Origin: an uncultured Acidobacteriota bacterium
Lineage (GTDB): Bacteria; Acidobacteriota; UBA6911
Assembly (NCBI GenBank): GCA_963843575.1
Contig: CAWJKZ010000018.1
Coordinates: 32,001-96,000, forward strand
Direction of reading: 5' to 3'
DNA: 64,000 bases
The notes beneath the pieces are model-generated. The model had not been told where the DNA came from. It saw nothing but the letters and a program-made list of their open reading frames with translations, and ran no database searches. The position numbers and the translations under genes were made by a program. Below are positions 2,008 through 21,727 of this stretch, one piece after another; positions within the stretch are counted from its first letter, which is position 1, and every line of letters starts with the position of its first letter.

Positions 2008-3231
2008 TCAAGAAGCGCCCTGGCTTGGCCAGCTTGGCCCAAGGTTGAAGGCCCGTGCTCCGCGAAAACTCGATTGACGCATGGCAAGCACCCGGCCTCT
2101 GCGCCCCACCCGGTAAGTGATTCCCCGCCACTGGATCTCGCGGCGAAGACCGGCCGCCCCAAGAGCTACACTGAAAACCAGCAAAAACACAGCCCCGGCG
2201 GCCAGCCACCGGACCGGCGGGCACGGCAACGGGTGCAAGAGCCGGATCTGTAGGAAGACCACCATCAGCACCGCAAGATAGAGAGCCGACACGATTGCGG
2301 ACAGTGCTGACGTCAGGCTCATCATAATTGCCACTACCAGCAATGCCGCGGAACAAAGAGCGAGGATCTGCAGGAGAAGACTCCACACGCCTAGCACAGC
2401 CCACATCCCCGGAAAAATAAAACGGACATATTGAAGCTGACGCACCAGCCACTCATACAAGTCGCGCAGATCCAATCCTGTCACCAAAGTCTCGCGGCAC
2501 ACCTGGGGCACCGTGCGCACCCTCACGCCATGCGCCCTGAGGACTCTCGCCAGCGATAAGTCGTCCACCACTGAGGTGCGCCACGTGTCTGCTACCTTCA
2601 GTCGCTCAAATGCCTCTCGCGAGATCGCCATGGCCCCCCCCCACGGCAGGCCGAGACCCGGCACGTTCTGGAAGACATACATAATTTCTACGCAGACAGC
2701 GTAGATCCAGCTCACGAATCCGCCATTTGCAGGCCTGGCAGCATGATAGCCGCTCGTCACCTCCGCTTCGCCGCGGGCAATCGGTGCAACCAAGCGCTCC
2801 AACCATCCGGCAGGAAATCCGTGGCCCGCGTCGGCAAAAACGAGTACAGCGTCACGACCTGAAACTGCAGCGATCCCGGCCAGCAGATTGTGGTTTTTCT
2901 GCCCGCACGCAGTCGCTGGACCTGCACAGACACACCTCGCCGATACTTTCCCCTGGATTGCCGCCTGGACCGTCTCGCTCGCCGGATCTTCGAGGTCCCG
3001 CAGCACAAAGACTGCCTCGAAGGAAGGATAGGTCTGGTTCAGTAGCGAGTGGATCGAGGCTTCAATCGGTCTGTTCACACCGGCGACCGGCATGATCACC
3101 GCCACGCGGCAGCTGGGAGCATCCGTGGACGGCACCGGAATGCCCGTGATGGCGTGTCTGGACATCCATATCAGGCCTGCCATTGATACGGCCCACGCCA
3201 GCATCAATCCGCACATGATCCACTCGATCAT
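2008..3231 (-). CDS. Glycosyltransferase, GT2/GT21 (ceramide glucosyltransferase / HpnI-like)
   Basis: N-terminal TM, GQKNHNL, VFADA (degenerate DxD), WGGAMA, VDDLSL, RQLQYVR (QxxRW-like), C-terminal TMs and IQWRGITY. Confidence 0.85.
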   Translation of the reverse strand: MIEWIMCGLMLAWAVSMAGLIWMSRHAITGIPVPSTDAPSCRVAVIMPVAGVNRPIEASIHSLLNQTYPSFEAVFVLRDLEDPASETVQAAIQGKVSARCVCAGPATACGQKNHNLLAGIAAVSGRDAVLVFADAGHGFPAGWLERLVAPIARGEAEVTSGYHAARPANGGFVSWIYAVCVEIMYVFQNVPGLGLPWGGAMAISREAFERLKVADTWRTSVVDDLSLARVLRAHGVRVRTVPQVCRETLVTGLDLRDLYEWLVRQLQYVRFIFPGMWAVLGVWSLLLQILALCSAALLVVAIMMSLTSALSAIVSALYLAVLMVVFLQIRLLHPLPCPPVRWLAAGAVFLLVFSVALGAAGLRREIQWRGITYRVGRRGRVLAMRQSSFRGARAFNLGPSWPSQGAS

Positions 3232-3244
3232 CCCAGCCCCCGGC

Positions 3245-4456
3245 TCAATATCCCATCAGCCCACAACAGCGGGAACAGACCGGCATCAGTCCTTCCGTCG
3301 CGAGACTGCGTCGGAAGGCAACGCAGCGTTCGGAGTTCCACAGTTCCGACAGCGTGGCGGTCTTGACGTTGCCAACAACATAGTCGTGGTAGTCGCGGCA
3401 GGGTGATACATCGCCGTTGCTGTTGATCTCGACAACCTGGAAAATGGAAACACACTGGTCATATCCGAACCGCTCCCGATGGTTGGTGTAGTACGCCGTC
3501 AGTGCCCGCTCCCCGCGCAGGAACGGGATGAAGGTGACCGGAACAGCGCCCGGCTGGCGCGATCTCGCCAGCAAGGCCTCGATCTGGCTGGCGAGGGCGG
3601 CATGATTGTCGGCTTTCCACTGCCCAATCCAGCCGCGGTGGAGTGAGGGCGTGAACCCAAACCGCCGTGAGAAATCCTGATCATGGGCTGCCGCATCCGC
3701 CTCGTCGATCCACCAGGAAAGGTAGAAGACGAAAATATCCACGCGATCCCGAAATCCGTCGTAGATGTCGACGAGATGGGCGCAGTTCTCACGCGAGATC
3801 GTCGTCAGCGAAGCAATCAGCGGCAGGCCGGTTCGGCGCGCCCTCACCCTGTGCACTGCTGCCAGACCTGATTCGATCGCCCGGAAGTTGTCTCCCCGAC
3901 CGGCGGAAGGACGAAGGCGGTTGTGCAGATCGCCGGTGTGCCCATCAATGGAGATTTGCAGAAGGAACAGCGGGGCACGGACCAACAGTTCCGCAGCCGC
4001 CTCGATGCCTGTGCCGTTGGTGGCGATGGCCACCGGGAGATGCAGGCGCGACCCAGCTTCCACGAGGTCCAGGATCCCGCGGTAGAGCATCGGCTCGCCG
4101 CCCCAAAAGTACAGAATCGGCCGATGCCCGTGCTCTACCAGATTCTCAAATAGCTGTTGGTACCGCTCAGGAGACACCTCATCCTGTTTCAAAGCCTTGG
4201 GATCGCACTGGTGAAGGAACCCGCGCTCGCCCCACTGACCGCAGGTGCGGCACCGCAGGTTGCAGAGATCGGTAATGCGGATGCCCACCTGCCGGATGCG
4301 CCTGGCATGGCCCCTTGCGGAGCAGGGATACAGGGTGTCGAAAAACCACTTCTCTCCCTGCAAGACCGACATCTTGGCTAAAATCCGCGGATGTGCGGCC
4401 ACTCGCAGGAGGTTGGCCGTCAATACTCGTGAGCTAATCGCACTGCGCTGCACCAA
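3245..4456 (-). CDS. Radical SAM protein with SPASM/Twitch domain
   Basis: CNLRCRTC (CX3CX2C), WGGEP, ATNG, ISIDG, and C-terminal C..GDVSPC..VVGNV..ELWNS..CSRCC. Confidence 0.93.
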   Translation of the reverse strand: MVQRSAISSRVLTANLLRVAAHPRILAKMSVLQGEKWFFDTLYPCSARGHARRIRQVGIRITDLCNLRCRTCGQWGERGFLHQCDPKALKQDEVSPERYQQLFENLVEHGHRPILYFWGGEPMLYRGILDLVEAGSRLHLPVAIATNGTGIEAAAELLVRAPLFLLQISIDGHTGDLHNRLRPSAGRGDNFRAIESGLAAVHRVRARRTGLPLIASLTTISRENCAHLVDIYDGFRDRVDIFVFYLSWWIDEADAAAHDQDFSRRFGFTPSLHRGWIGQWKADNHAALASQIEALLARSRQPGAVPVTFIPFLRGERALTAYYTNHRERFGYDQCVSIFQVVEINSNGDVSPCRDYHDYVVGNVKTATLSELWNSERCVAFRRSLATEGLMPVCSRCCGLMGY

Positions 4457-4605: not shown

Positions 4606-5877
4606 CTACGGCTTCCCCGAAGTCGCAGGCGGATGCTCTTCGGGTTTTGAGGCGTTTGCATCTCCGTTTTTAGGAACGGCCCGCACCCAATCGCCGAAGT
4701 TTATCAGCTCTTCCATCCGGCATGACCAGACGAGTCTGTCCTCCCACACGGTGATGTCCGGGCACCCGTCACACATGCTGAGAGCGCCGCTCTCGGTGAA
4801 GTCCGCCGGTTGGATGATCATGATCGATTGCATGTGGAGTTTCCTGAACAGCAATGCCGGTGAACGGGCGGCATCGTGCAGATAGGCAAGAGCGGTGCGG
4901 CTCAAGCCTTTGTCGAACGGGGCAAGCAACAGCATCGCCTTGCCCCTGCCGTGCACCTTCGGCTTCGTGTAGGCCAGATATGACCCGTTCAGCAGGTGAT
5001 GAAGCGTTTGGGAAAGCTCCATGAATTTCGGGCCCGTGTAGCCGAAGATCTTGTCCTTCGTCCCGATGCGCATGGTCAGCAGCCACTTGAAATGGTCCGG
5101 ACGCTCCGTGCCGTTGAGATACGCCGAAGGCTGGAAGTCCGGATAGCGCGAACGTATGGCCTCGACGACGTCCGTCGACATGGCGTAGATCTGCCGCTCT
5201 TCGTCGACGACGTAGGCGATTGGCGCCATGTCGATTGTTTTGCTTCCGACAAGGTAATCATAGCCTTTGCGCATGGAACCCGAGCGGTAAGCAATAAACA
5301 CGAGGACTTGGACGATATCGATGTGGTTCTGCCCCCAGGCCACGATCTCAGGGACATCCTTGAGTGTGTCCTCGTAGACGGTGGCATTGAAAGCACAGGA
5401 TATGTCGCCAACCTCGGCCAGCATGAGAGCATATTGCAGCCGCAGTTCATTTAACTCGATTTCGGTCTTCCCCTTCATGTGGGGGCGCTGCTGTTTGCTG
5501 TCGATGTGGAATGTAAATCCTGCAACGCCAGCCTTCTTAAGAGCGACGAGTTTCTCTTTTGACAGCCAAAGGCCGTTGGTGTTGATGATCGGTTTTTGGC
5601 CGTCGGCGGCGATCATCTCCACGATCTTCTCGATCTGAGGGTGCATCAGCGGGTCTCCCCCGGCAATAGAGACGCTATCCGCGTTGCGCAGGCGATTGAA
5701 TATGTCGAGTTCTTTCCGAACCTGTTCGAGCGACTTGTGCGCGTCCGGGTTGTTCTTGCGATAGCACCCCTGGCAGTAAAGGTTGCAGGCACTGGTCGGC
5801 TCTAACCAGCTGATGGCATTGTCAGGGAGGTTCCAGGGTAGGCGGTAGAGCCTGCGATGGTTCAATGGCGCTGGCAT
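4606..5877 (-). CDS. Radical SAM protein with C-terminal Cys cluster (MCDGCPD...WSC)
   Basis: CNLYCQGC, AGGDP, INTNG, FHIDS, plus a possible auxiliary-cluster motif CxxC-x13-C. Confidence 0.92.
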   Translation of the reverse strand: MPAPLNHRRLYRLPWNLPDNAISWLEPTSACNLYCQGCYRKNNPDAHKSLEQVRKELDIFNRLRNADSVSIAGGDPLMHPQIEKIVEMIAADGQKPIINTNGLWLSKEKLVALKKAGVAGFTFHIDSKQQRPHMKGKTEIELNELRLQYALMLAEVGDISCAFNATVYEDTLKDVPEIVAWGQNHIDIVQVLVFIAYRSGSMRKGYDYLVGSKTIDMAPIAYVVDEERQIYAMSTDVVEAIRSRYPDFQPSAYLNGTERPDHFKWLLTMRIGTKDKIFGYTGPKFMELSQTLHHLLNGSYLAYTKPKVHGRGKAMLLLAPFDKGLSRTALAYLHDAARSPALLFRKLHMQSIMIIQPADFTESGALSMCDGCPDITVWEDRLVWSCRMEELINFGDWVRAVPKNGDANASKPEEHPPATSGKP

Positions 5878-6375
5878 GAGATCATCCTTTCCGATCGTAC
5901 GAGCCCCAAAACCGGAAAACTTGCCGACGATAATACAACATCACGGACGGACTTCTTGAGTGCTATTGGCTCTTTCACAGAATGGCCGAGTGAAGTCGTT
6001 TTTGCGCTCAGGCCTGCTTCCTCGCAGGACGAGACGCCGCACATAACAGCTACTGCGATTGTGCGACTGGATCTTTGCGCAGGCGGCGGCGTAACAAGGC
6101 TGCAACCTGGGCTGGCGTTGACGCCGGAAAATCGGCCCGTCGGGCTCAACCGGGTTCTTCTCATTTCGCAGCAAGTGCGGGGGCGTGGGTCCGGATATCC
6201 GGGAGCGGCAGGCGGCGGGGGACGGGGTTATCCGGCAGGAAGGAGGGACAAGCATTCACGGCCCGGTTGAATCCGCCATTCCGGCGAAGCCGATCAACAA
6301 CCGCCAGGCCCGAGGGGGGGGCAGGGGACTTCCGGGTTTAAGGGCACCCTGCGCCATCGCATTGTCGCAAAGCCC

Positions 6376-6540
6376 GATCAGCCGGCACACCAGGTGCTGT
6401 CCGATAAAGCCGATGGCCTGGATGACCAGCACGGATTCTGCATCTCTGGTTTTCATCGCTTAGATTGGGATTGCAGTCTCACGCGAACAAGCGATAATCA
6501 AGGATAGTTCCTCCGCCATCATCGTGAGATGAAAGCCGTG
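6376..6540 (-). pseudogene. Degenerate copy of the 5' end and upstream region of the SDR gene that starts at 11795
   Basis: 6376-6457 aligns with 11715-11796 (MKTRDAESVLVIQAIGFIGQHLVCRLI vs MKTREAESVLVTGASGFIGQHLVRRLI). 6448-6535 aligns with 11943-12030. Confidence 0.85.
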
Positions 6541-6766
6541 GCGCGAGCGAGAGACTCGCTTTGCCTGCTCAGAACAGAGCGACTGCCCGTGCGACCGGTC
6601 GGACGATGGCGAACGCGGGCCTTCGTCTTTGGGCCCAGGACGCGAGATGCTTTTATGCCCGGACTAAGGGCTCGCGCAAGAATAGTTTGGCATTTTGCTC
6701 CGGCTCCCATGCCCGAATGTAGCACTATCAGAAAACTGCAATTGTCCGCTGGGCCTGGGAGCCATC

Positions 6767-6875
6767 GCCCTGCGGGGCGCGGCGGCGGGCGGGCATCTGC
6801 GGCCTTGCCGCTCCTCGACGATGTCCCCACACCGCCTGCGTCGCGGCGCCTTGCACCTGCCCGCCCGGCGCTCGC
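6767..6875 (+). repeat. Intergenic GC-rich dispersed repeat, family B (second copy 58975-59038)
   Basis: GCCCT.CGGGGCGCGGCGGC.G.CGGGCATCTGCGGC.TTGCCGCTCCTCGACGATGTC.CCAC is shared between the two sites. Confidence 0.75.
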
Positions 6876-6945
6876 GCCAAAATGCCAACCTATTCCTGCG
6901 CGAACCCTAAGGGTTTCCGCCGGGCCGGAGCCCGGGACAAGGGGC

Positions 6946-7950
6946 ATGCCGCAACCGATCGCAGGGCGTTACCGGGCCGTGTTCATTTCCCCGCATCTCG
7001 ACGATGCGATCTTCTCCTGCGGCGGAACCATCGCGCGGCTGATCAAGGACGGGCCGGTGCTGGTCGTGAATGTCTTCTCTCGATGTACGGAAGACGCCAG
7101 AAGGTACGCATTGGTTCTTGGCGAGGAGCGGCGCCGCGAGGAGAAGGCTGCGGCAAGCTTCCTGGGCTACGACGCAATCTGCCTGGAGGAAACCGACGCC
7201 TTCCTGCGCCAGGGCTCGAATCGCTCGATCGGTAGACTGTTCAGCTCCCCGACTGCGGCAGACCTCGCGGACCTGCCCCGGATCACCGGGAGGTTGGCGG
7301 AGTGCTTGGCGGCCGTTGACAGCGACAACCTGTATATCCCCCTTGGCGTGGGTTGGCACGTGGATCACGTCCTCTGCCACCAGGCGGCGCTGAACCTGGC
7401 ATCCGGGTTCAGCGGCCGGGTCTTCTACTACGAAGATTCGCCGTATTGCTTCATTCCCAACGCGGTGCGTTGTCGGCTCGACGAGATCGGCCATTGGGCG
7501 GAGGCGCCCCTCAGGGGGTCGCTAACCCGCGAGTGGTGGAAGTCCTGCAGCCACTACCTCCGGAGCGCAGTCATGCGCCACGTCCAGCCTCGGCCTGTTC
7601 GCTGGGCGGCCAGCGTGGTCGTAGCCGCCTATCTGCTGGGCCTAATGCGGCGGCATCGTGCGGCTGGAGATGCCCGGAGCCCGGCAAGGTGTCCGCGTCT
7701 TAGCCCGCAATTGGAGGACATCTCCGCGCAGGAAGAGCTTAAGCTCGACGCCATGATGTGTTATGAGTCGCAGTTCCGAGCCCTGTTTCATGGGCGGCCC
7801 GATTGCGAGGAACTCCACAGGAACTATTCGCGAACGATGAACGATCGCGACGCCGTCTTCGAGAGATTCTGGACCTTGAGCTGGGAGCCGGCATCGCCGT
7901 GCAGGCAGCGCGGTCCGAGCAGGCATCAAGGGGTGGAGGCCGTGGTATGA
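6946..7950 (+). CDS. PIG-L/LmbE family N-acetylhexosaminyl deacetylase
   Basis: ISPHLDDAIFSCGG, RRREE, GWHVDH, YYEDSPY, YESQ. Start taken at ATG 6946; the longer ORF extension runs through repeat DNA. Confidence 0.9.
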   Translation: MPQPIAGRYRAVFISPHLDDAIFSCGGTIARLIKDGPVLVVNVFSRCTEDARRYALVLGEERRREEKAAASFLGYDAICLEETDAFLRQGSNRSIGRLFSSPTAADLADLPRITGRLAECLAAVDSDNLYIPLGVGWHVDHVLCHQAALNLASGFSGRVFYYEDSPYCFIPNAVRCRLDEIGHWAEAPLRGSLTREWWKSCSHYLRSAVMRHVQPRPVRWAASVVVAAYLLGLMRRHRAAGDARSPARCPRLSPQLEDISAQEELKLDAMMCYESQFRALFHGRPDCEELHRNYSRTMNDRDAVFERFWTLSWEPASPCRQRGPSRHQGVEAVV

Positions 7951-9191
7951 GTGGTAATCCGGAGTTGCCGGGCCGCGGCAACGGGACGGCCACGAGGATA
8001 GCGGAACTGGCCCCTCTGCCCGTTCGCAATGGGAGCTTGTCGGAAGACCGCAATCGGGAAACTCCGCAGCGCTGCCTGAACATCTGCATGGTATCGGACG
8101 ATTTCCTGCCGGCCGCGACGGGCTGTGGCGTGGTGGTCCAGTGGGCAGCCAGGGAACTGGTCAAGAGGGGCCACAGCGTCAGCGTGGTCACCAGCCGCCG
8201 AAGGGGCCAACCCGGTCTGGAAACGTGGCACGGGATCCGCGTCCACCGGACCTTCTCGATCAGGTTGTACGGCTACTACCAGGCCCTGCCCAGCCAGTCC
8301 GCCCTCCGGCGGATCCTGAACGAGAACGACTTTGACATCATCCATTACCACTATCTCTTCGTCCTGCTGATGCGCATGCGCGCCGCCGCCGCCTCGATGC
8401 GGGCCAGGCATGTCTACACCTACCACATGACCGTAGATCTGTTGACGCAGCCGTGGCTGATGAAGCCCTTCCGTCGGGTCATCTTCAGGCGGCACGTGGA
8501 ATACTGCAACCGGTTCGATTTGATCCTGGCGCCGTCTGCACACCTGGTGGAACAGATACGGGAGTACGGGATCACGGCCCGGACCGAGTACCTCAGCAAT
8601 CCCATCGTGTTCGACAGCCGGGCGGAACAGCAGCGGTCGCCCGAGGATGGTCCCTTCGTGGTGCTCTTCGTCGGACGTCTTTCGCCGGAGAAGAACCTGC
8701 CTTATCTCATCAGGGCTTTCGCGGGGTTGGTGCGGCAACAGCCTTGCTCGGAGCTGAGGATCGTCGGCGAGGGTAGAGAGAAGCCCAGGCTTATGAGGTT
8801 GGCCTCCAAGCTTGGCCTGGAGAGGCAGGTGAAGTTCCTGGGTTTTGTCGAGAACTCCTTGCTGGTGCCGCACTACGCTGCCGCAGACGCTTTTGTCCTG
8901 CCATCGCTTTCGGAGACGCAGGGTCTGGTTGCGCTGGAAGCCATGTGGTTCGCGAAGCCGGTGATCGTCACCAATCGCATCGTGGCTGCCCGCGAGCTGG
9001 TGGAGGATGGGCGGAACGGGTTCATAGTTGACTCGGACTCCGTGGAGGACCTCACCGGGAAGCTGGCCCTGCTCAGCCGCAATCCCGGACTCGCCCGAGA
9101 GCTGGGTCAGGGGGGCCAGAGGCTTGCGGGGCGCTATTCACCGGAACAGATAATCAGCCGGCTGGAGCGGCACTACCTGGATCTGATGTGA
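7947..9191 (+). CDS. Glycosyltransferase family 4
   Basis: SDDFLP..TG, YTYH, FVGRLSPEKN, ETQGLVALEAM (EX7E). ATGA coupling to the deacetylase stop. Confidence 0.93.
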   Translation: MSGNPELPGRGNGTATRIAELAPLPVRNGSLSEDRNRETPQRCLNICMVSDDFLPAATGCGVVVQWAARELVKRGHSVSVVTSRRRGQPGLETWHGIRVHRTFSIRLYGYYQALPSQSALRRILNENDFDIIHYHYLFVLLMRMRAAAASMRARHVYTYHMTVDLLTQPWLMKPFRRVIFRRHVEYCNRFDLILAPSAHLVEQIREYGITARTEYLSNPIVFDSRAEQQRSPEDGPFVVLFVGRLSPEKNLPYLIRAFAGLVRQQPCSELRIVGEGREKPRLMRLASKLGLERQVKFLGFVENSLLVPHYAAADAFVLPSLSETQGLVALEAMWFAKPVIVTNRIVAARELVEDGRNGFIVDSDSVEDLTGKLALLSRNPGLARELGQGGQRLAGRYSPEQIISRLERHYLDLM

Positions 9192-10761: not shown

Positions 10762-11795
10762 TCAGAGCCATCCGGCCTGGCGATACCATTGGGCCGTTTC
10801 GCGCAGGCGTTCGGCCAACGTGGCCGCGGGGGACCAACCCAACTGCGTGCGGGCCTTGGCGGATGAGCACGTCCACGACCCGGCCAGGGCTTCGGCCATC
10901 TTGTCGCTGTTCACCCAACCGGGACGTTGCCGCATGCGCGCCCAGCGAGTCGCCGCAAAGCCCGACCAGTCGCATGAGCGGTCCCGGGCATGTGCACCAC
11001 CGTGGCCCGCTTCTTTCCCAATGCCTGTGGCCATGGCCTGTCCCAGTTCGGCATACGTCGGATCGTGCCCCGGCCGCCATGAAGTAGACACCTTGGCCCG
11101 GCGCTCCGTCGGGGTGCAGACGCTCGCCTTTCTCGGCGGCCAGGAGCAGGAGTGCGACCAGGTCGGCCACGTGGATCAGCGAGAACGCGTCGTTCCTCCC
11201 GGCCGGGCACGACATGGAGCCCCGAGCGGGCGATCGGCCGGAACATTTCAAGCACGCCCCGGTCGCCGGGGCCGAAGACGATCGGCGGACGCACGATGGT
11301 GATCTCCATTTCTCCGGCATGCCTGGCCGCGGCCAGTTCGCCCGCCAGCTTGCTGCGACCGTAGGCGGAAACAGGTGCGGGCGAATCGCCTTCCACGCGA
11401 GGTTGGTCGCCGGCGCAAGGCCCCGCCGCGGCCAGCGAGGAAACCACGATCAACACCGGCCGCTCGGCGCGGTCCGCACAGGCAGCCGCGACGGATTCGA
11501 CGCCGCCCGCGTTCACGCGTGCGAAATCGGCCGTCCGCACCGCCTTCACCAGGCCCGCCAGGTGGAACACCACGCCGGCCTGCGACTCCGCCAGCGCCCG
11601 TTCAATGCCGGCGCGATCGGTCGCATCGCCCACGATGAGTTGGGCGCCTGATGATCGTAGTTCGTCGATGCGCGACGTGGCCCGCACCAGGCACGACACC
11701 CGGTCGCCACGCTCGATCAGCCGGCGCACCAGGTGCTGTCCGATAAAGCCGCTGGCCCCAGTGACCAGCACGGATTCTGCTTCCCTGGTTTTCAT
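10762..11795 (-). pseudogene. NAD-dependent epimerase/dehydratase (extended SDR; candidate 3-keto-ceramide reductase), about five frameshifts in the 3' third
   Basis: VLVTGASGFIG, FHLAG, VSSLAA, YGRSK, RPPIVFGPGD. The remainder (FSLIHVADL, SSAKARTQLGW, WYRQAGWL) is split over three frames between about 10940 and 11200. Confidence 0.85.
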
Positions 11796-13202: not shown

Positions 13203-13231
13203 ACGGCTGGCATTTCAGTGGAGGTCTGGGC

Positions 13232-16200
13232 ATGTTGGCTGAGGAGCAGGTTCCCATCATTGCTTTTGTCTGGAGACCTGGCGAGATAAGCCCGCCTGTG
13301 TCCGAAATGGCACAACGCACGGGCAGCCGGGCCATCTTCGATTTTTCCACGATGGGGGCGGAAGCACTGCATTCGTTCTTACAAACGGCTGACCCTGCTG
13401 GCCATGTCAGCGATATCAAGATTTCCGCCTCCGCCCTGATGAATCCATCCATCGGCCGGATCCTGAAGGAAACAGGTGCCCGGAATCTCTGGGTGGAATG
13501 CCAGTCCCAGTTCTTCCCGGGGGATCCTTCGGCCTTTCTACAGCGACTGCGGACCTTGTCGGAAGACTACCGCTGCTTTCCCATTGTCGGGGACGTGCCT
13601 CTCCTGGCCGCCATGGTCAAGGATGGTTCGGGCATCGGGCGCATCGTCCTCAAGGGCTGCGAGGCCGCTGGATTCGTGAGCGGCGAGACGACCTTGGTCC
13701 TCTATGCGGCGGCCAAGGAAATGTTGCGCGCCTCTGCGAAGTCTCTGGACGTCCTCATCTGGGGCGGCGTCTCCACCCCCGAGGCGGCCGCGGCCTTCCT
13801 GTCCACCGGAGCCGCCGGTATCGTCTTCGAGAGCGTCCACTGGCTGACTGATCTGGTGGTCATGGACGATCGCCAACGCCAGCAACTCGCCAGACTCCGC
13901 ATGGATTCCACTGCTCTGGTGGGCTTGGACCTGCAGGTTCCGTGTCGCCTTTTCAACAAAGGGAACTCGCTGGCCTTCAAGAAGATCCAGGCGTTCGAGG
14001 ACTCGCTGTGCGCCGCCGAGATCACGGACGAAAGCCGTCGTGCCTTCGTCGGCCAGGTGCAGGCCAGCGCCCTCCACCCCCTGGACAGCCATTTCACCCA
14101 GAGCGAGGTCATCCCTCTGGGCGTGGAGGCGGCCTTTGCCGCGTCGTTTGCCGAGCGTTTTGGCACCGGAACCGAGAAGGCCGTGAAAGCCTTCATGGCG
14201 GAGATGCGGAACTTGTGCGGCGCAGCCGAGGCGAAGAAGGATTGCTTCCTGGACAGCCCCGTAGCCCGGGAGATGGGCATCAAATACCCCTTTATCCAGG
14301 GTGCCATGTCCTCGATCACCGATATCCCGGAGTTTGCCTCCGAGATTGCTGATGCCGGCGGACTGCCCACCATCGCCCTCGGCCTGATGGATGCCCAGGC
14401 CCGTGACCGCAGGCTGGGACGCTTGCCGGAGATCATGGGCGGACGCCCGTATGCGGTGAATGTCGTCTCTCTGGCCGAGAACCCGTTCCGGGAAACGCAT
14501 CTGGCCTGGATAAAACAACACCGACCCCGTTTTGTCTGGATCGCCGGAGGAGATCTCTCCCCCATAAGAGAATTGCTGCAATGCGGCATTGGCGTCGTGT
14601 ATATCGCCCCTGATGAGGCCCTGTTGAAGCTCGCCCTGGAAGCGGGCGTCCGCTACGTGGTCTGCGAGGGCTACGAGGCCGGCGGCCACGTGGGGCAACA
14701 TAGCACGCTCACCCTGGCGCAAATGGTGCTGGACCTCAAACGTCGCCAGCCATCCCTGTTCCGGGACTGTCGGGTGATCCTGGCCGGGGGCATCTTCAAT
14801 CGGGAAACCGCCTTCATGGCCGGCCTGCTCGGCGCCGACGCCATCCAGATGGGCACGGCCTATCTGGCCACCCGGGAGATCGTTGAAACGGGCGCCCTGG
14901 CGGCCCTCTATCAGCGGATGATCGTGGAATCGCCGCCGGGGGGAACGGTCGTTTCGGGCCAAAGCACCGGACTTCGCGTGCGCTCCTTGAGGACCCCGAG
15001 AGTGGCCGCCGTCTTAGCTCTGGAACGGGAGTTTGCCGCGGGCCACCAGGACGAGCAGTCTTTCCGCAAGAAAATGGAGGAGATGACCGCCGGCAGCCTC
15101 TTCGTCGCGGCCCGAGGCGTGGACCGCCAAAGCGGGCGGCCGCTGGATGAGCAGGCGTGTCTGGAACGCGGGCAATTCATGAGCGGGTCCTGCGCCGGAC
15201 TGATCGGTAAAGTCCAGAAGCTGGAGTCCTTTCACCGCGAGTTGGCCGAAGGCCCGCTCTTGCTCCATCAGCCCTTTGCGACGTCGACCGCAAAAACCTC
15301 GGCACCTTCACCCGACGCGCCGCTACCCGCGGAAATCCCCACTCCCGTGGTTGGCCGGGGACCGAAGGGCGTCGCCCGCCTGAGAGACGATCGCGACCGG
15401 GTGGCCATCAGCGGGATGAGCGTCCTCAATGCCCTCGGGAAGAGCCCGGAAGAGGTCTGGGCGGCAAGCCTGGCCATGAAGAGCGGCGTTACCTTGGTGC
15501 CGTCTTCCCGGTGGAATCACGACCGCTTTTATGATCCGCGGCCGCGCGTCACGGACAAGACCTACTGCCAGGTGGGCGCCTTTGTGGACTTTCATGTCTC
15601 ACGCAATGAACTGGGGATTCCCCCACAGGATTTCCGGACCATGACCTCGGCCACCAGGATCACCATGTGGCTGGCGCAAAGGGCCATTCGGGCCTCCGGC
15701 ATCCTGGAGTCAGGTATCCCGCGCGAGCGCATCGCGGTCCTCATCTCCCAGAACTCCGGAGAGGCGGCGGGCACCCTCACCGGTATGATCATCAGGGAGT
15801 ACGTGCACGAAATCCTCTCCGCCATCAAGCGGGCCGTTCCCCTCACCCCGGATCAGGAGAGCGCCATCGAACGGGAGGTGAAGTCCGGACGCATGGCCCC
15901 GGACGACACCACGCTTCTGGGCCGACTCAACTGCACCGCCGCCGGCTTCATCTGCAACCGCTATGGCTTCATGGGGCCCAGCTATTCGGTCTCCGCCGCC
16001 TGCGCCACCTCCCTGGTCGCGCTCTACAGCGCCCTGCAGATGATCCGCAACGGCATCATCGACGCCGCCATCGTCGGCGGAGGCGAGGATGATCTCACGC
16101 ATCTGCATTTCCTGGAATTCTCCGCCCTGGGCGCGCTTTACGGGTTGTCGGGACGGCCGCGGCCGCCTCACGAAACCTCTCGCCCCTTCGATGCTGAAAG

Positions 16201-18112
16201 AGACGGGATGGTCCTCGGCGAAGGCGGGGGCATGATCGTCATCGAGCGCGAGAGCCTGGCCCGCGACAGAGGGGCCCCGGTCCATGCGGTCATCACCGGC
16301 ATGGGCGCAAGCAACAACCATCTGGGCATGGTCGAGTCCTCCAGCGTCACCCAGGAAATCGCCATCCGCGCTTCTTTCCGCGGAATGCCCTATGGGCCCG
16401 ACGCCGTGGACCTGGTGGAATGCCATGCCACAAGTACTCGCCAAGGGGACGTGGAGGAGGTCCGTGCCCTGAAGACATTCTTCAATTCCTCCAAGCGCAC
16501 AGTGCTCACGTCATTCAAATCCCAGATCGGACACACACTGGGCGCCTCTGGCATTAACAACCTCATTCGAGGAGTCATGGCCATGAAGGCGGGGGTTTTC
16601 CCCCCCACCCTCAACTACACGCACCCTGATCCGGAAATCGACTCGAACGGATCGGGTCTCCTCATCGCCCCAGAGCCGCTCGATTGGAAGTGCGAGACCG
16701 GCCGGCCAAGAAGGTTTCAGGTCAACGCCTTCGGGTTTGGAGGTTCCAACTACGTGGTTCAGGTGGAGCAGGCCCTGGATGGTGAGGATACGATTCTGGT
16801 CTCCACGGGCAGAGAGGCGCGTCTCGCCGCGGAGACGGCCGATGACCCTGCCGTGCTCCAGGGCGTCTCTTTCTTCCGGACCGAGATGGCCGGCCGCACC
16901 TGCCGGATGGCCGTTGTCGCACCATCTGCCGAAGAGGCCCTCACGGTCATCGAGCGCTCCGCCTCCCTGGCCGAAGCCGCGGTCGCCTCACCCAAGGCGG
17001 CGCGTTCCCTGGCGCAGCAGGGCCTCTTCATCAGCCCCGAGGATCCGCCCGTGCCGCCGCTCGCTCTGGTCTTTCCCGGACAGGGGGCCCACTATGCCGG
17101 CATGGGCCAGGCGCTCTACGAGTCCTTTCCCGTCATCAAGGAGTGGATGGATCGGGCGGCCGCCGCCGCCACGGACTTCGACCTTCTGCAATTGTTATTC
17201 CATGATCGAGAGGAGAACCTGCAGAAGACCCGCTGGCAGCAACCGGCCCTGTTCGCCCTGGAGCACGCCATGGCTCGATACCTCATCACTCTTGGTATCC
17301 ACCCTGTGGCTATGGCCGGCCACAGTTTGGGCGAACTGACCGCCCTATGCCTGGCCGGTGTCTATTCCCTGGAGGACGGGTTTCGAATCGTGAACAAGAG
17401 GGCCCTCTGCATGGACAAGGCCGCTGCTATGCACGTGGACCCCGGCGTCATGGAGGCCACGGACGCCCCTCTGGATCTGCTGAAAGAGATGATCCGGGGA
17501 CGGAAGGATGTCCACATTGGCAATATCAATTCACCGAACCAGGTCGTCCTGAGTGGCGACACCGAGGCGGTCAAAAATCTTGGTAACAGACTGAAGGAGA
17601 AGGGATACCGGTCCACCCTCCTGCGGGTCAGCATGGCCTTCCACTCTCCTATCATGAGGCTTATCCATGATGAGCTCGAGGCGTACGTTGCCTCCATCCC
17701 ATTTCATTCCCCGCAGATCCCCGTCATCTCCAACACAACCATGGCACCGTACCCATCAGATCCCGGTGAGATCAGGCGCATCCTGATGGCCCACCTGGAA
17801 TCTACCGTCCATTGGATGAATAATGTCCAGACTCTCTGGAATGACTACGGCATCCGGCTCTTCGTGGAGGTGGGTCCCGGCGACATATTGAGCAATCTCA
17901 TCGCCGACACGCTCCCTGAACCGCTGTGCCTCCAGACCTGCCTGCCCACCGCGGAGAGCCACACGTACCGGACCGCCCTGGCGCAGCTCTTCGTTCACGG
18001 ACATCTACAGGTTCGGGAAGAACCGCGGTTCGTCTCCCTCCCGGCATCCCGGAAGGCTCCCGCGTCTCACCGCCACGCCCCAGCCGGAGAACAGTCCTCC
18101 CCGCCCCCTTGA
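13232..18112 (+). CDS. Type I PKS/FAS, N-terminal part: degenerate FabK/NPD domain, FabK/PfaD-like enoyl reductase, KS, AT
   Basis: ER: YPFIQGAM, EGYEAGGHVG, LAGGI, IQMGTAYL. KS triad: SAACATS, ECHATST, KSQIGHT. AT: FPGQG, GHSLGE, MAFHS (malonyl-type). Confidence 0.93.
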   Translation: MLAEEQVPIIAFVWRPGEISPPVSEMAQRTGSRAIFDFSTMGAEALHSFLQTADPAGHVSDIKISASALMNPSIGRILKETGARNLWVECQSQFFPGDPSAFLQRLRTLSEDYRCFPIVGDVPLLAAMVKDGSGIGRIVLKGCEAAGFVSGETTLVLYAAAKEMLRASAKSLDVLIWGGVSTPEAAAAFLSTGAAGIVFESVHWLTDLVVMDDRQRQQLARLRMDSTALVGLDLQVPCRLFNKGNSLAFKKIQAFEDSLCAAEITDESRRAFVGQVQASALHPLDSHFTQSEVIPLGVEAAFAASFAERFGTGTEKAVKAFMAEMRNLCGAAEAKKDCFLDSPVAREMGIKYPFIQGAMSSITDIPEFASEIADAGGLPTIALGLMDAQARDRRLGRLPEIMGGRPYAVNVVSLAENPFRETHLAWIKQHRPRFVWIAGGDLSPIRELLQCGIGVVYIAPDEALLKLALEAGVRYVVCEGYEAGGHVGQHSTLTLAQMVLDLKRRQPSLFRDCRVILAGGIFNRETAFMAGLLGADAIQMGTAYLATREIVETGALAALYQRMIVESPPGGTVVSGQSTGLRVRSLRTPRVAAVLALEREFAAGHQDEQSFRKKMEEMTAGSLFVAARGVDRQSGRPLDEQACLERGQFMSGSCAGLIGKVQKLESFHRELAEGPLLLHQPFATSTAKTSAPSPDAPLPAEIPTPVVGRGPKGVARLRDDRDRVAISGMSVLNALGKSPEEVWAASLAMKSGVTLVPSSRWNHDRFYDPRPRVTDKTYCQVGAFVDFHVSRNELGIPPQDFRTMTSATRITMWLAQRAIRASGILESGIPRERIAVLISQNSGEAAGTLTGMIIREYVHEILSAIKRAVPLTPDQESAIEREVKSGRMAPDDTTLLGRLNCTAAGFICNRYGFMGPSYSVSAACATSLVALYSALQMIRNGIIDAAIVGGGEDDLTHLHFLEFSALGALYGLSGRPRPPHETSRPFDAERDGMVLGEGGGMIVIERESLARDRGAPVHAVITGMGASNNHLGMVESSSVTQEIAIRASFRGMPYGPDAVDLVECHATSTRQGDVEEVRALKTFFNSSKRTVLTSFKSQIGHTLGASGINNLIRGVMAMKAGVFPPTLNYTHPDPEIDSNGSGLLIAPEPLDWKCETGRPRRFQVNAFGFGGSNYVVQVEQALDGEDTILVSTGREARLAAETADDPAVLQGVSFFRTEMAGRTCRMAVVAPSAEEALTVIERSASLAEAAVASPKAARSLAQQGLFISPEDPPVPPLALVFPGQGAHYAGMGQALYESFPVIKEWMDRAAAAATDFDLLQLLFHDREENLQKTRWQQPALFALEHAMARYLITLGIHPVAMAGHSLGELTALCLAGVYSLEDGFRIVNKRALCMDKAAAMHVDPGVMEATDAPLDLLKEMIRGRKDVHIGNINSPNQVVLSGDTEAVKNLGNRLKEKGYRSTLLRVSMAFHSPIMRLIHDELEAYVASIPFHSPQIPVISNTTMAPYPSDPGEIRRILMAHLESTVHWMNNVQTLWNDYGIRLFVEVGPGDILSNLIADTLPEPLCLQTCLPTAESHTYRTALAQLFVHGHLQVREEPRFVSLPASRKAPASHRHAPAGEQSSPPP

Positions 18113-18206
18113 TCGCCCCCCGACCACCCCGGACGGACAGGCCGCCCCGGCCCTTGCCGAAGCGCCTGAGCGTCAGGACCACCTGGAGGCGATTATTCGC
18201 ATCATC

Positions 18207-20936
18207 ATGGATGCCACCGGATTCGACCGGGACGAAATCCAACCCGATATGGATCTCAGAAGAAACCTCTCCATCCGCTCCAGCCGTCTGCCGATCATCA
18301 TGGATGCCGCGGAACGCCAGTTCGGGATCACTATCGAATTGGAGGACTTTATCCATGTCCGCACCGTAAGAGACATCGCCCAGCGGATCTCCGCGATCGT
18401 CGCCCGGCAGGAAGGCGCCGGCGAGCGGCCCGCCGCCAAGGCGGCTGACCCCGGCGCGGCGCCGGCCGGAATCCCTGAGCCGTCAGCGGATGAGGCGCTT
18501 CTGAAGCGGCTCGTTTTCAACCTCGCCCCTGTGGAGCCGGCAGCTTCCATGCCCGTGGAATTGAGCCCCGGCGAGGCCGTCCTCCTCCTCTCGCCGGACC
18601 AGGATGACGCACTGGCCAAGAGTGCGGGAGACCTGCTCCGCCAGGATTACGGTGTTGACACTTTTCCCCTGCCATTCATGCCAGAGCACTTGGGGCCGGG
18701 CGAAGAGGGCCACGACATTCTGAATGCCGCGGGAGTCGCCAGGACCTCAGAGAAAATCTCGGGCCTCGCCTCCCTCGCGGGGCTGGTCATCACCTTGCCT
18801 CAAGACGGGTCGGAACGGTTGGCCGGCATGGCGGATGTTTCGCGGCTGCTCACCGGGCTCTTTCAACTCCTGAAGGCTTTTCTCCAATCACCATCCAGGA
18901 AATTCGTCGTCCTGATTCATGCCCGCGAGGATACCGACACTCTCGGTCGGCTGCTGACGGAGGGGCTGCTCGGACTGTTTCTGAGCGCCGCCCAGGAACA
19001 CCCCGCGGTCCAGTTTCGCACGCTGGAAATCGACCGGGACACCGACCTGCCCCTGGCCCTGCGCGCCGCTCTGGACAAGGGCTGCGCCGCGGTGGAACTC
19101 ATTCATCGCGAAGGCAAGGTCTTCACCTCGCAGGGACACCTGGCCCCCGCGGTCTTCGGCGATCCGCCAAGTCTGAAGTTGAACCCCGGAGACGTTGTAG
19201 TCATGTCTGGAGGCGCCACGGGGATCAGCGCCCACCTGGCCCGCAGTTTGGTGCCCTTCGCGCCTCGCCTGGTCTTTCTTGGCAGGACCCAGCTGGAACC
19301 GCACCCCGAGCCTTCGTCTTCTGCATCTGCCCCTGACAAATCCCGAGCCCGCGAGATCGCCCAGACCCTGGCGGATTTGCACGCCTCAGGAATCGAGGCC
19401 ACGTACCTGACCTGCGATGTAACCGACCCCGAGGCGGTTCGTGTTGCCCTGGGCGAGGTGGCCGGCCGCTATGGCCGGATCGACGGCATCATTCACGGCG
19501 CCGGCGTCCTCCGGGACGGTTTCCTCGACCAAATGACCCCTGAGGATTTTTCCCTCGTCGCGGACGTCAAATTCCTGGGAGCCTGGAATCTATTCTCGGC
19601 GGCAGAGGGGGCGGGCTTGAGGTTCTTCGTGGGCCTTTCCTCGGTGGCGGCCATCCAGGGAAATCCCGGCCAGACCAACTACGCTGCCGCCAACCGCATG
19701 ATGTCGGCGCTACTCCGATACCTCCGCCGCAGGAACGGCGCCATCCGCTTCAAGGCGTTGATGCTGCCCCCGGTCGAGGGGACGGGCATGGCCGAGAACC
19801 CGGAGGTCCGGGACTTGCTCAGACGCCGAGGCGTGGCCTACGTCCACGTCCATGAGCTTGCCGGCCTGTTCTGCCGGGAACTCTTCGTCGCCCCGGCCGA
19901 CGACGATTGGGTCATGTTCATCAGGACCCTGCCCTCCGTGAAGACGGCACCGCTCGGTGATATCAGCCACCCCGCGCTCAGTGGACAACTGGATGGCGGC
20001 CCCGTGGCCTTCAGCCCTCGCGACTTCCCCATGATCGATGGCATCTCTTGCCTGGACCTCCGCCGGGAACACTTGGAGGCCTCCAGGTCCTTCTCCAGGC
20101 AGAACGATCTGTGGATCGCGGATCACCGGCCACTCAAGTCCCTCGCCCATCCTCTGGTTTCCGCCGCCATGATGCTCGAGACCTTCATGGAATCCGCCCG
20201 CATCCTCTATCCCCACCTCCAGGTGCGGGGCGTGCGCCAGGTGCGTTTCATGGACATGATCTCCTGTCCTCCTGAGGTTCCCCGGTCTTCCAGAATCTCC
20301 TGCCGCCGAGCCGGCGTCGACCCTCGTGAGGTAGTATGCGAGGCCTCTCTATCCGTACAAGAGATCTCCCCCACGGGCCGGCTGGCCGACCGCTTCATCC
20401 CACACTGCACGGGCCAGGTGCTCCTCGGCGGCGGGCGTGGAGAACTCGCCGAGTGGTTCCAGGATTTTCCTGTCCGTCCGGATGAGCTGCGGACTCCGCC
20501 CGTGAATCATGAAAAAGTGCTCAAATGGTACGAAGAACGAACCGGACTCAACGGCAGATATCGCGTGCTGGAGGTCATTGACGGTGCCGGTCCGGGGCTG
20601 ATACGGGGCCGAACCATTTACCGGGAGACCGGTGATTTCGCGCATCTGCACGCCGCGCGCTACCAATACTCTCCCTACCTGTTCGAGGCCCTGATGCAGT
20701 TGGCCGCCTTCCACATGCTGGCCATAGACCCACACGATCGCCGCTCGATGCTCCCCACAGAGATCGGCGAGATGCGGTTTCTGCGCCAATGCCGGCCGGG
20801 CGAACAGATAACCCTGGAGGCCCGCCTGCGGGTTCAGGACCACGAATCTCTCGCCTGGGACGCCCGGGGACTTGACGATCAAGGCCTCACTATAATGCAG
20901 ATTCGTACGATGCGCATGCACTGGGTTTCGCCGTGA
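18207..20936 (+). CDS. Type I PKS/FAS, C-terminal part: ACP, KR, double-hotdog DH. Probably one gene with 13232-18112, split by a frameshift near 18100
   Basis: ACP DLRRNLSIRSS with its first helix (HLEAIIRII) upstream of the ORF start in the same open frame. KR: GGATGI, HGAGVLRD, GNPGQTNYAAAN. DH: WIADHRP...LFEALMQ. Confidence 0.9.
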   Translation: MDATGFDRDEIQPDMDLRRNLSIRSSRLPIIMDAAERQFGITIELEDFIHVRTVRDIAQRISAIVARQEGAGERPAAKAADPGAAPAGIPEPSADEALLKRLVFNLAPVEPAASMPVELSPGEAVLLLSPDQDDALAKSAGDLLRQDYGVDTFPLPFMPEHLGPGEEGHDILNAAGVARTSEKISGLASLAGLVITLPQDGSERLAGMADVSRLLTGLFQLLKAFLQSPSRKFVVLIHAREDTDTLGRLLTEGLLGLFLSAAQEHPAVQFRTLEIDRDTDLPLALRAALDKGCAAVELIHREGKVFTSQGHLAPAVFGDPPSLKLNPGDVVVMSGGATGISAHLARSLVPFAPRLVFLGRTQLEPHPEPSSSASAPDKSRAREIAQTLADLHASGIEATYLTCDVTDPEAVRVALGEVAGRYGRIDGIIHGAGVLRDGFLDQMTPEDFSLVADVKFLGAWNLFSAAEGAGLRFFVGLSSVAAIQGNPGQTNYAAANRMMSALLRYLRRRNGAIRFKALMLPPVEGTGMAENPEVRDLLRRRGVAYVHVHELAGLFCRELFVAPADDDWVMFIRTLPSVKTAPLGDISHPALSGQLDGGPVAFSPRDFPMIDGISCLDLRREHLEASRSFSRQNDLWIADHRPLKSLAHPLVSAAMMLETFMESARILYPHLQVRGVRQVRFMDMISCPPEVPRSSRISCRRAGVDPREVVCEASLSVQEISPTGRLADRFIPHCTGQVLLGGGRGELAEWFQDFPVRPDELRTPPVNHEKVLKWYEERTGLNGRYRVLEVIDGAGPGLIRGRTIYRETGDFAHLHAARYQYSPYLFEALMQLAAFHMLAIDPHDRRSMLPTEIGEMRFLRQCRPGEQITLEARLRVQDHESLAWDARGLDDQGLTIMQIRTMRMHWVSP

Positions 20937-21727
20937 CGCGGCTCGAACAAATGGGGGCAGCCGTGGCACAGGATCGCCAGGAAGTCATCGTTCAGTCCGT
21001 GCGTCTCGTTCCTTGCGGGTGCGTTGTCTTCTATGCCTCCGTGCCAGGGAACTCCGCAAGCTCCAGCGGATCCGCGACCATTCGGACGGAAAACCGTCGT
21101 CGGCTCGTCGCCATCCTCTGGGAGCACCTTCGGGCGAAGGGAAGTCCTCTCTGGAAACGCCCCCATTTCTCCAACAGAGTCGCAGTCCCGATTCAGATAG
21201 TCCACGATACGCTGGGTCGGCCTCGTCTCCTGTTGGGAGAACAGCGGGGCCCGGCCATCTCCTTCAGCACGGCGGGCGAAGAAGTCTGGGCCGCCCTCTG
21301 TGACGACGACTCGACTATCGGCATCGATGTGGCCGGAAGCGCCGAATTCCAGGATGGTTACCCCGTGCACCGGGTCTTCCACGTTCAGGAGCTTCACCAG
21401 GCATTGGAGATGGCGGGCGGAGACTTGGCCAAGGCCGCGGCGCTGCTCTGGTCTATCAAGGAAGCCGTCGCCAAGGCCCTTGGGTGCGGCTTTCATCTTG
21501 TGGATCCGCGGGACATCCATGTCTATCCATCGGCAGCAGAGGATAGCGGGCCTGCCTTTTCCGCACGCTTATCAGGGAAAGCTTTGGTGCGTTTCCCCAT
21601 GGCCGACCGCCGGCCTATCACGGTGTGTTCGCTGCCCCACGCCGAGACGTGGCTTTCCGTCGCCGCCTTGAATTGGCCGCGGCCGTCTGTCGCCAATAGT
21701 CCATCGCTCCGGTCTTCGTGCCCTTGA
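20933..21727 (+). CDS. 4'-phosphopantetheinyl transferase (Sfp-type)
   Basis: GRPRL, ISFS, IGIDV, WSIKEAVAKALG. GTGA overlap with the PKS stop. Confidence 0.9.
   Translation: MTRLEQMGAAVAQDRQEVIVQSVRLVPCGCVVFYASVPGNSASSSGSATIRTENRRRLVAILWEHLRAKGSPLWKRPHFSNRVAVPIQIVHDTLGRPRLLLGEQRGPAISFSTAGEEVWAALCDDDSTIGIDVAGSAEFQDGYPVHRVFHVQELHQALEMAGGDLAKAAALLWSIKEAVAKALGCGFHLVDPRDIHVYPSAAEDSGPAFSARLSGKALVRFPMADRRPITVCSLPHAETWLSVAALNWPRPSVANSPSLRSSCP

Follow-up and report, generated by a model that had tools for sequence, protein, structure and literature searches.

A conserved gene cluster pairing a YghO-family GNAT with a type I fatty acid/polyketide synthase, and a candidate route to ceramide-like lipids in uncultured bacteria

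Sphingolipids have long been considered rare in bacteria. Genes for Spt-like enzymes have nevertheless been reported from about 40 phyla, according to the portions of PMC11334938 available to us. The Caulobacter ceramide pathway, as far as the available portions of its descriptions go, consists of the acyl-ACP synthetase AasR, AcpR, Spt, the ceramide synthase bCerS/CerS (CC_1154 = CCNA_01212) and CerR (CC_1164) (PMC11324152, PMC11087976). A different set of enzymes was published in 2025 for Pseudomonas fluorescens MYb115, in which the iterative polyketide synthase (PKS) SgaA, the serine palmitoyltransferase (SPT) SgaB and the KDSR SgaC make sphingolipids; as described in the accessible part of that paper, homologues are mostly found in Burkholderia (PMC12134224). 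Here we describe a gene cluster in a 64,000-nt stretch of DNA from an uncultured Acidobacteriota bacterium (CAWJKZ010000018.1, positions 32,001-96,000, forward strand; hereafter the window). As a first-pass annotation of this DNA had noted, a GNAT stands directly upstream of, and co-oriented with, a reducing type I PKS and its 4'-phosphopantetheinyl transferase (PPTase), and an extended short-chain dehydrogenase/reductase (SDR) is divergent from them. The cluster is real and conserved, and it most likely encodes a pathway for a ceramide-like lipid; that sugar and radical-SAM enzymes are integral to the pathway, as was also proposed, is a weak proposition.

The gene content of the window was established from a listing of open reading frames (ORFs) and from Pfam and NCBIfam scans, which recovered the genes named in the first-pass annotation at their positions. 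The cluster begins outside the window, with a gene for a fused fatty-acyl-AMP ligase (FAAL), acyl carrier protein (ACP) and alpha-oxoamine synthase (AOS). The genes of its core are as follows; coordinates are those of the window unless prefixed G000, which denotes the window's genome.

G000:C18:28473-31919: FAAL-ACP-AOS protein, 1148 aa; outside the window, ending 81 nt left of its edge (Pfam, FAAL models)
1..856, + strand: DrrA-like ABC transporter ATPase, starting 118 nt left of the window as the next gene after that for FAAL-ACP-AOS (Pfam ABC_tran, DrrA1-3_C)
853..1968, + strand: ABC-2 type permease, presumed lipid exporter/flippase partner of the ATPase (Pfam ABC2_membrane_3, 7e-36)
about 10762..11795, - strand: extended SDR, candidate 3-keto-lipid reductase (CerR analogue), divergent from the GNAT gene (Pfam Epimerase/3Beta_HSD/NAD_binding_4)
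12035..13202, + strand: YghO-family tandem-GNAT N-acyltransferase (GNAT1), putatively ceramide-synthase-like (homology to E. coli YghO)
13232..20936, + strand: iterative, fully reducing type I fatty acid synthase (FAS)/PKS (Pfam NMO, ketoacyl-synt, Acyl_transf_1, PP-binding, KR, PS-DH)
20933..21727, + strand: Sfp-type PPTase, predicted to serve two ACPs; right end of the cluster (Pfam ACPS, 1.7e-11)

This core resembles the Caulobacter pathway, within what the available portions of the source describe, in its activation of a fatty acid onto a dedicated ACP, its Spt-like AOS, its N-acyltransferase, its extended-SDR reductase and its linked transport genes; the FAAL, ACP and AOS domains match AasR, AcpR and Spt, respectively (PMC11324152). 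It differs in that FAAL, ACP and AOS form one polypeptide, and in that the N-acyltransferase is tied to a type I FAS/PKS and a PPTase. The GNAT is likened to Caulobacter bCerS by gene linkage (to an Spt-like AOS and an SDR) and by described role, not by sequence. SgaABC, again compared by description rather than by sequence, likewise groups an iterative type I PKS with genes for an SPT-type AOS and a reductase. However, SgaA is a monomodular PKS feeding the SPT, SgaC is a eukaryote-like KDSR, and the accessible descriptions mention neither a GNAT ceramide synthase nor a FAAL-ACP fusion nor an ABC-2 exporter; the hosts described there are host-associated Proteobacteria, whereas the hosts here belong to anaerobic wetland and sediment phyla (PMC12134224). 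Since SgaA and SgaB are known, the general idea of PKS-derived bacterial sphingolipids is not new, and the claim of the first-pass annotation that no characterised bacterial sphingolipid cluster is built around a PKS has been overtaken by that publication. The PKS-coupled, ceramide-like route considered here would be a second one, architecturally different from SgaAB.

A further set of relatives is formed by the Pfa-like 'secondary lipid' FAS/PKS systems, which likewise have a FabK/PfaD-like enoyl reductase (ER), PfaA-like ketosynthase (KS)-acyltransferase (AT) and ketoreductase (KR) domains and a PPTase, as well as a patchy, horizontal-transfer-shaped distribution with many Deltaproteobacteria and Planctomycetes among their hosts, to judge from the available text of PMC3098273. 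We compared the types of Shulse and Allen (2011), including 'Type S' of D. autotrophicum, by these text descriptions, none of which mentions a GNAT or an AOS in the portions accessible to us (PMC3098273). Unlike Pfa systems, the cluster has a single ACP in its synthase, no KS-CLF and no FabA-type dehydratase (DH) genes, and the synthase scores 336.6 bits against the PfaA model TIGR02813 (cut-off 1010) and only 25 bits against the PfaD family model. No PfaB- or PfaC-like genes were found in the window. Literature searches returned no paper describing a GNAT-PKS-AOS cluster; the supplementary tables of Stankeviciute et al., of PMC11334938 and of PMC12134224, which lay outside the search, may include such genes among their bCerS or Spt homologues.

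Scanning a single genome for each GTDB species yielded 182 confirmed relatives of the GNAT, and the locus counts that follow refer to the best 80 of these 182 (71-94% identity), in which co-occurrence was scored by tblastn with the window proteins. The GNAT was present in 80/80 loci and lay immediately upstream of the synthase in 77/80. The second half of the synthase was detected in 53/80 loci, the PPTase in 45/80, the SDR in 33/80, an ABC ATPase following the PPTase or the AOS in 24/80, and the ABC-2 permease in 17/80; many loci were ended by contig or flank limits, so the lower gene counts are minimum values. We conclude that the pairing of GNAT and PKS is far beyond chance. By record title, the carriers belong to Thermodesulfobacteriota, 'delta proteobacteria', Geobacterales, Syntrophobacteraceae and Acidobacteriota (Terriglobia, Bryobacterales, Aminicenantes), and further to Planctomycetota, Verrucomicrobiota, Nitrospirota, Binatia and Deferrimicrobiaceae. 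The first-pass annotation had suggested looking for conserved synteny of GNAT, PKS, PPTase, SDR, GT21 and radical-SAM genes. GNAT, PKS and PPTase are indeed kept together across phyla and the SDR recurs, but the GT21 and radical-SAM genes are not kept (0-1/80 loci).

A tblastn search with E. coli Kbl detected an AOS just beyond the left edge of the window, some 12 kb upstream of the GNAT, as the C-terminal domain of the FAAL-ACP-AOS protein. The adjacent serine palmitoyltransferase that the first-pass annotation had proposed to look for thus appears as an Spt-like AOS in fusion with a FAAL and an ACP. FAAL models score 430 bits, and the AOS domain matches Pfam Aminotran_1_2 (3.6e-43); by inspection, the protein has an ACP GLDSL motif and a 'GTLSKS' motif around the lysine that binds pyridoxal phosphate. 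Its best solved relatives are bacterial SPTs (3a2b, 8guh; 237 bits), followed by plant LCB2a (216), human SPTLC2 (205.5), Kbl (197) and BioF (179). The AOS would be Spt-like on these similarities, with serine (giving a 3-keto-sphinganine-type base) or alanine (giving a 1-deoxy base) as putative substrate. The window's genome contains no further AOS except a Kbl-like one.

Linkage of an AOS to the GNAT-synthase pair is frequent. Of 59 loci examined, 41 have an AOS in cis, which lies inside the locus in 20 and was located by a whole-genome search within 25 kb in 21 more; that search took in 39 genomes covering 40 loci, and the other 21 of the 80 loci stand outside the AOS count. Counted by genome, an AOS lies on the GNAT contig at a distance of ≤25 kb in 22/39. 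The group closest to the window has the same FAAL-ACP-AOS fusion (76-93% identity), and Geobacter-type loci have a stand-alone AOS, in the order SDR, AOS, GNAT2, PAP2, GNAT1, a 281-aa protein of unknown function, synthase, PPTase; GNAT2 is a paralogous YghO-type GNAT, 39-43% identical to GNAT1. The PAP2 genes, present in 16 loci, match PAP2_3, and their only NCBIfam match, below cut-off, is phosphoinositol dihydroceramide synthase; on this similarity they look like ceramide head-group transferases. PLD-type genes occur in 6 loci. In 7 loci, an Acetyltransf_6/FemAB-like acyltransferase of ~380-440 aa, absent from the window, lies between the AOS or PPTase and the ABC genes (for example, L009:3951-5276 and L052:17853-18989).

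The GNAT gene of the window was found by tblastn with E. coli YghO, a GNAT of uncharacterised function, and the intact GNAT homologue P0016 aligns with YghO end to end (BLASTP, 33% identity over 373 columns, E 7e-67). The protein has no Pfam or NCBIfam match of its own, even at E 10, and a comparison with PDB sequences gave nothing better than E>0.1. Its homologues are 373-402 aa long and 71-95% identical. A protein-database search with the GNAT found 2018 related metagenomic protein clusters, of which the best 120 are all at least 76% identical to it; among the matches listed, a few relatives carry the name 'acyl-CoA N-acyltransferase'. The YghO family is large, with 11,478 representative clusters at E≤1e-3, the best 150 of which all score above 350 bits. 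An AlphaFold model built from a 139-sequence alignment (pLDDT 96.2), superseding an unusable one from 10 sequences (pLDDT 58), has two GNAT folds in one chain of ~380 aa. The best Foldseek matches in the PDB are tandem GNATs (5kf1, 2wpw, 7q3a and MshD 2c27; E 2e-14 to 1e-9), and the nearest folds are amine N-acyltransferases, namely the glucosamine N-acetyltransferase 5kf1, the clavulanate tandem GNAT 2wpw, MAB_4324 and MshD. The earlier assignment to the YghO family is thus borne out by full-length homology and by the tandem-GNAT model. That bCerS also belongs to this family is a statement of the first-pass annotation rather than a result of ours, and we treat it as an assumption.

The YghO-type GNATs fall into distinct groups. 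A quick maximum-likelihood tree (IQ-TREE) of local sequences, whose backbone is unresolved and whose root is arbitrary, groups the PKS-linked GNATs tightly in a single long-stemmed clade (SH-aLRT 100), apart from the GNAT2 clade (99). The 20 kb examined at the yghO locus of E. coli K-12 carry no annotation for an AOS, a PKS or an SDR, and in the window's genome the PKS-linked GNAT is the sole YghO-type gene. Among the genomes with no AOS near the PKS-linked GNAT on its contig, G004, G009, G011, G015, G026 and G030 have one elsewhere, directly beside a second YghO-type GNAT. Moreover, an AOS and a YghO-type GNAT are fused in the proteins P0174 (780 aa) and P0204 (777 aa) and in frames of 788-792 aa (G009:C28:15470-17722 and G014:C38:10434-12686); such single polypeptides provide, on sequence grounds, a Rosetta-stone link between the two predicted activities. 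A protein of similar length, P0124 (784 aa), is unlike these fusions in being a tandem of two YghO-type units. Two other family members, P0228 and P0269, have an N-terminal PilZ domain. PilZ domains bind c-di-GMP, which hints at c-di-GMP regulation in some members of the family.

The GNAT loading domain of CurA offers a precedent for a different function, in which the GNAT would be a chain-initiating loader that decarboxylates malonyl and primes the ACP of the PKS. The position of the gene immediately upstream of the PKS would suit such a role. We nevertheless regard it as hardly credible, since the GNAT is a stand-alone, 383-aa tandem protein of the YghO family, other members of which are fused to or adjoin AOS enzymes, and since it has no similarity to PKS loading modules in Pfam or NCBIfam.

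The synthase has the domain order uncharacterised N-terminus, FabK-like ER, KS, AT, ACP, KR and DH (Pfam; FabK/FabF/FabD/PfaA models), and its orthologue in locus L003 is a single ORF of 2567 aa. It carries one PP-binding domain, and a Pfam scan found no thioesterase domain in it. KS Cys/His/His, AT GHSLG and KR YAAAN motifs were recognised by inspection rather than by a tool. In 31/80 loci a protein of ~281 aa without Pfam or NCBIfam match, whose N-terminus looks lipoprotein-like by eye, is encoded between the GNAT and the synthase (for example, L020:11419-12264). It is absent from the window, and the idea that it is fused there into the N-terminus of the synthase was rejected, there being no similarity.

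From the gene content, homologies, fold and conserved linkage described above, we infer the origin of the acyl chain, the amino-acid substrate, the order of steps and the export of the product. The FAAL-ACP-AOS protein would activate a free fatty acid, load it onto its own ACP and condense it with an amino acid to a 3-keto long-chain base, which would be of the 3-keto-sphinganine type with serine and a 1-deoxy base with alanine. After priming by the PPTase, the iterative ER-KS-AT-ACP-KR-DH synthase would build a saturated acyl chain, which would stay on the ACP of the synthase because there is no thioesterase. The YghO-family tandem GNAT would then offload the synthase by transferring this chain to the amine of the base, in bCerS-like chemistry; the extended SDR would reduce the 3-keto group; and the ABC-2 transporter would move the lipid across or out of the inner membrane. 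On balance, we judge that the core is probably a self-contained pathway for such a ceramide-like (N-acyl long-chain-amino-alcohol) lipid.

The first-pass annotation had a dedicated megasynthase supply the long chain, which is then N-acylated. The link between PKS and GNAT in that scheme is upheld by the 77/80 loci, but the AOS carries its own FAAL-ACP, so that the long-chain base is a less likely destination for the PKS product than the N-acyl chain transferred by the GNAT. The main alternative is the routing known from Sga: the acyl-ACP of the PKS would be condensed by the AOS and become the chain of the base, the GNAT would add an ordinary acyl-CoA or acyl-ACP, and the FAAL-ACP would merely prime or recycle fatty acids. 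In the sole characterised case the iterative PKS does feed the SPT, as described in the accessible part of PMC12134224, and many Desulfobacterota loci have a stand-alone AOS of ~400 aa and no FAAL-ACP. Three observations make this routing unlikely here, although still worth keeping in mind: the AOS of the window's clade forms a single protein with a FAAL and an ACP of its own; the invariant neighbour of the PKS is the GNAT, not the AOS; and, where there are two GNATs, the AOS pairs with the other one. We therefore retain the reading in which the GNAT receives the chain made by the synthase.

The candidate reductase is intact in L003 (351 aa). Its matches to HpnA, OleD and thioester-reductase models are all below cut-off; OleD is a lipid 3-oxo reductase. 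CerR is an epimerase-type extended SDR, and the SDR here is likewise an epimerase-type protein encoded with an Spt-like AOS and a GNAT, SDR-AOS-GNAT2 triads being found in Geobacter-type loci. In both the window and L003 the Rossmann motif VLVTGASGFIG begins ~8 residues after the initial Met (by inspection, no predictor), too close to it for a signal peptide to fit in between. An ORF at 10490-11320, 'orfX', was rejected as a gene because it is the C-terminus of the SDR out of frame.

As assembled, several of these frames are broken. Comparison with intact orthologues (L003, L050 and others) identified eight single-base frameshifts in total: one insertion in the GNAT gene, at 13056, which puts the last ~45 residues out of frame; five insertions in the SDR gene, at 10940, 10986, 11026/7, 11072 and 11183; one frameshift in the synthase gene, near 18095 in a C-rich linker; and one near 7911-7935 in a gene for a PIG-L/GT4 protein (see below). 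The ORFs labelled 'PKS1' and 'PKS2' accordingly appear, by alignment, to be one ER-KS-AT-ACP-KR-DH gene divided by the frameshift near 18095. Six of the frameshifts (five in the SDR, one in the GNAT) were checked against contigs of four public wetland/soil sequencing runs from four studies, and wherever these contigs cover the SDR and GNAT sites, the extra letters are absent; the SDR letters are absent in four other runs and the GNAT insertion in three. In run X3, one of two contigs may retain the extra letters at 10940 and 10986, with 44.2 of 58.8 depth lacking them. No sequencing run contained half or more of the stretch's words, so the comparison contigs come from close relatives, not necessarily from this strain. 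The absence of the extra letters from four independent metagenomes indicates that the checked frameshifts are probably assembly errors. In addition, the genes for squalene-hopene cyclase (G000:C14:550352-552299) and HpnH (G000:C17:117773-118730) are each split over two adjacent frames, which suggests that indel errors occur assembly-wide. We conclude that the frame breaks in the window probably arose as errors in the assembly's consensus. A further probable indel error is the letter at window position 11803, which most contigs of three other runs do not have; it lies in the divergent promoter region of the SDR and GNAT genes, just before the SDR start codon.

Several observations weigh against a ceramide-like pathway. 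Genuine breaks in the SDR, GNAT and PKS frames would leave this strain without a working pathway. The AOS falls short of each NCBIfam SPT cut-off (NF047600, 310 vs 640 bits; NF047599, 274 vs 500; NF047603, 205 vs 670) and scores slightly higher on the BioF model TIGR00858 (350 bits, cut-off 426) than on the SPT models. The SDR is too short at its N-terminus to hold a signal peptide, whereas the accessible text on Caulobacter CerR reports that enzyme to be periplasmic (PMC11087976). Finally, 17/39 genomes have no AOS within 25 kb on the GNAT contig, several of these contigs being truncated, and the single Spt-like AOS of G004, of G026 and of G030 stands elsewhere, paired with another GNAT. It is therefore possible for GNAT and PKS to occur together with no AOS nearby.

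These last observations, together with ABC exporter genes directly after the PPTase in many loci and with structural neighbours of the tandem GNAT that acetylate small amines, would fit a module of GNAT, PKS, PPTase and ABC genes that makes and exports an N-acyl amino acid or another N-acyl amine independently of the AOS, whose linkage would then be secondary. We consider this improbable. An AOS is in cis in the majority of examined loci, AOS-GNAT fusions exist within the same family, PAP2 and PLD genes recur, and many of the contigs without an AOS end at the cluster. A ceramide-like product of GNAT, synthase and AOS remains the interpretation that we prefer.

Between the transport genes and the SDR, the window carries a further group of genes:

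2008..3231, - strand: GT2/GT21-like glycosyltransferase, accessory and lineage-specific (Pfam Glyco_transf_21, 6e-11)
3245..4456, - strand: radical SAM/SPASM enzyme (rSAM-SPASM), accessory, paired with the GT21-like gene (Pfam Radical_SAM and SPASM)
4606..5931, - strand: second radical SAM enzyme (rSAM2), accessory; ORF from ATG 4606-5877, orthologue alignment to 5931 (Pfam Radical_SAM)
6529..9191, + strand: fused PIG-L de-N-acetylase and GT4 glycosyltransferase, accessory; ORFs 6529-7950 and 7803-9191 (Pfam PIG-L, Glycos_transf_1/Glyco_transf_4)
9435..10493, - strand: DctP-type (TRAP) periplasmic solute-binding protein, accessory or unrelated (Pfam DctP, 2e-45)

The first-pass annotation had described a GT4 coupled to a PIG-L deacetylase. 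Both are present but, as judged from a single 770-aa ORF in L050 that aligns to the window in two frames, they appear to be one fused gene and not two. It had also listed a 'TatP', which was not found in the window, where the DctP-type protein is the only candidate for what was meant; L050 has only a 42%-identical, differently placed homologue of this protein. The idea that the GT21-like gene and rSAM2 are the hopanoid genes HpnI and HpnH was rejected. The former scores 78.7 bits on the HpnI model (cut-off 310), the latter 53 bits on the HpnH model (cut-off 225), with weak HpnH and Tes matches all far below cut-offs, and the genome's own HpnI (320 bits, on C14) and HpnH (427 bits, on C17) are above cut-offs and elsewhere.

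The first-pass annotation had made these genes integral to the pathway, with glycosylation by GT21 and GT4, de-N-acetylation by PIG-L and radical-SAM modification leading to an amino-glyco-sphingolipid. A glycosyltransferase, a PIG-L protein and a radical SAM enzyme together recall the logic of hopanoid head-group synthesis by HpnI, HpnK and HpnJ, and GT21 includes ceramide glucosyltransferases. The sole argument from the locus itself that the accessory genes tailor the product is their nesting inside the cluster, physically between the AOS/ABC and the SDR/GNAT/PKS genes, in the window and partly in L050. However, the GT21-like and rSAM-SPASM genes were detected in 0/80 loci, and rSAM2, PIG-L and GT4 in 1/80 each, L050 only, where rSAM2 is 95% identical; PIG-L/GT4 was not found in the 40 relatives of the window's genome that were searched. 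Furthermore, rSAM-SPASM and GT21-like genes (83% and 67% identity, respectively) form a co-oriented pair at G056:C17:57356-61507 (locus L089), in a same-family genome without a PKS-linked GNAT, and thus look like an independent two-gene module; a single weak GT21 match in another genome, G073, plays no part in this comparison. These counts and this pair place glycosylation, de-N-acetylation and radical modification outside the conserved pathway, and we hold the fully elaborated scheme to be doubtful. The accessory genes are nested in the cluster only in the window's lineage, where they could at most contribute optional tailoring of the head group; the genes for sugar and radical-SAM enzymes are probably local additions. 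Overall, then, what holds of the earlier interpretation is the adjacency of an Spt-like gene and the synteny of GNAT, PKS and PPTase, while its sugar, de-N-acetylation and radical steps and its claim of novelty for the PKS do not.

A PKS-linked GNAT was found in 0/40 sampled relatives of the window's genome, including a same-genus genome at 81% completeness, and 13/40 have only GNAT paralogues (33-45% identity). GNAT copies with 90-94% identity are, on the other hand, present in metagenome-assembled genomes labelled as other phyla, some of them on contigs of 0.46-0.87 Mb. Together, the absence from relatives and the highly similar copies in other phyla point to horizontal spread under strong constraint. 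A metagenome-assembled genome of a 'delta proteobacterium', G005, contains two GNAT-synthase copies, L046 on C4 and L017 on C5, with 79% and 78% identity to P0016; a single Spt-like AOS was found in it, adjoining the C4 copy.

A bolder version of the preferred pathway can be put forward tentatively. The PKS-linked GNAT would be a new ceramide synthase that releases the chain of a thioesterase-less FAS/PKS onto a FAAL-ACP-Spt base, and horizontal transfer would have carried the module (70-95% identity) into eight or more phyla of wetland and sediment bacteria, most of them uncultured, which would make undescribed sphingolipids, for example very-long-chain or 1-deoxy ceramides; the window's lineage would add a glucosamine-type or radical-SAM-rearranged head group by an HpnI/J/K-like set. 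The cluster is very strongly conserved, and its hosts are anaerobes of peat, wetland and sediment, whose lipids serve as environmental biomarkers. It gives a testable function for the large, uncharacterised YghO family and suggests how a synthase that has no thioesterase could be offloaded, namely by an N-acyltransferase.

To the right of position 21727 the window encodes unrelated proteins, including glycoside hydrolase-like proteins and an outer-membrane barrel. Among them is also a ThiS-ThiF-rhodanese triple fusion of 481 aa (window 36555-38000, + strand), in which a sulfur-carrier activation enzyme appears with its own carrier attached.

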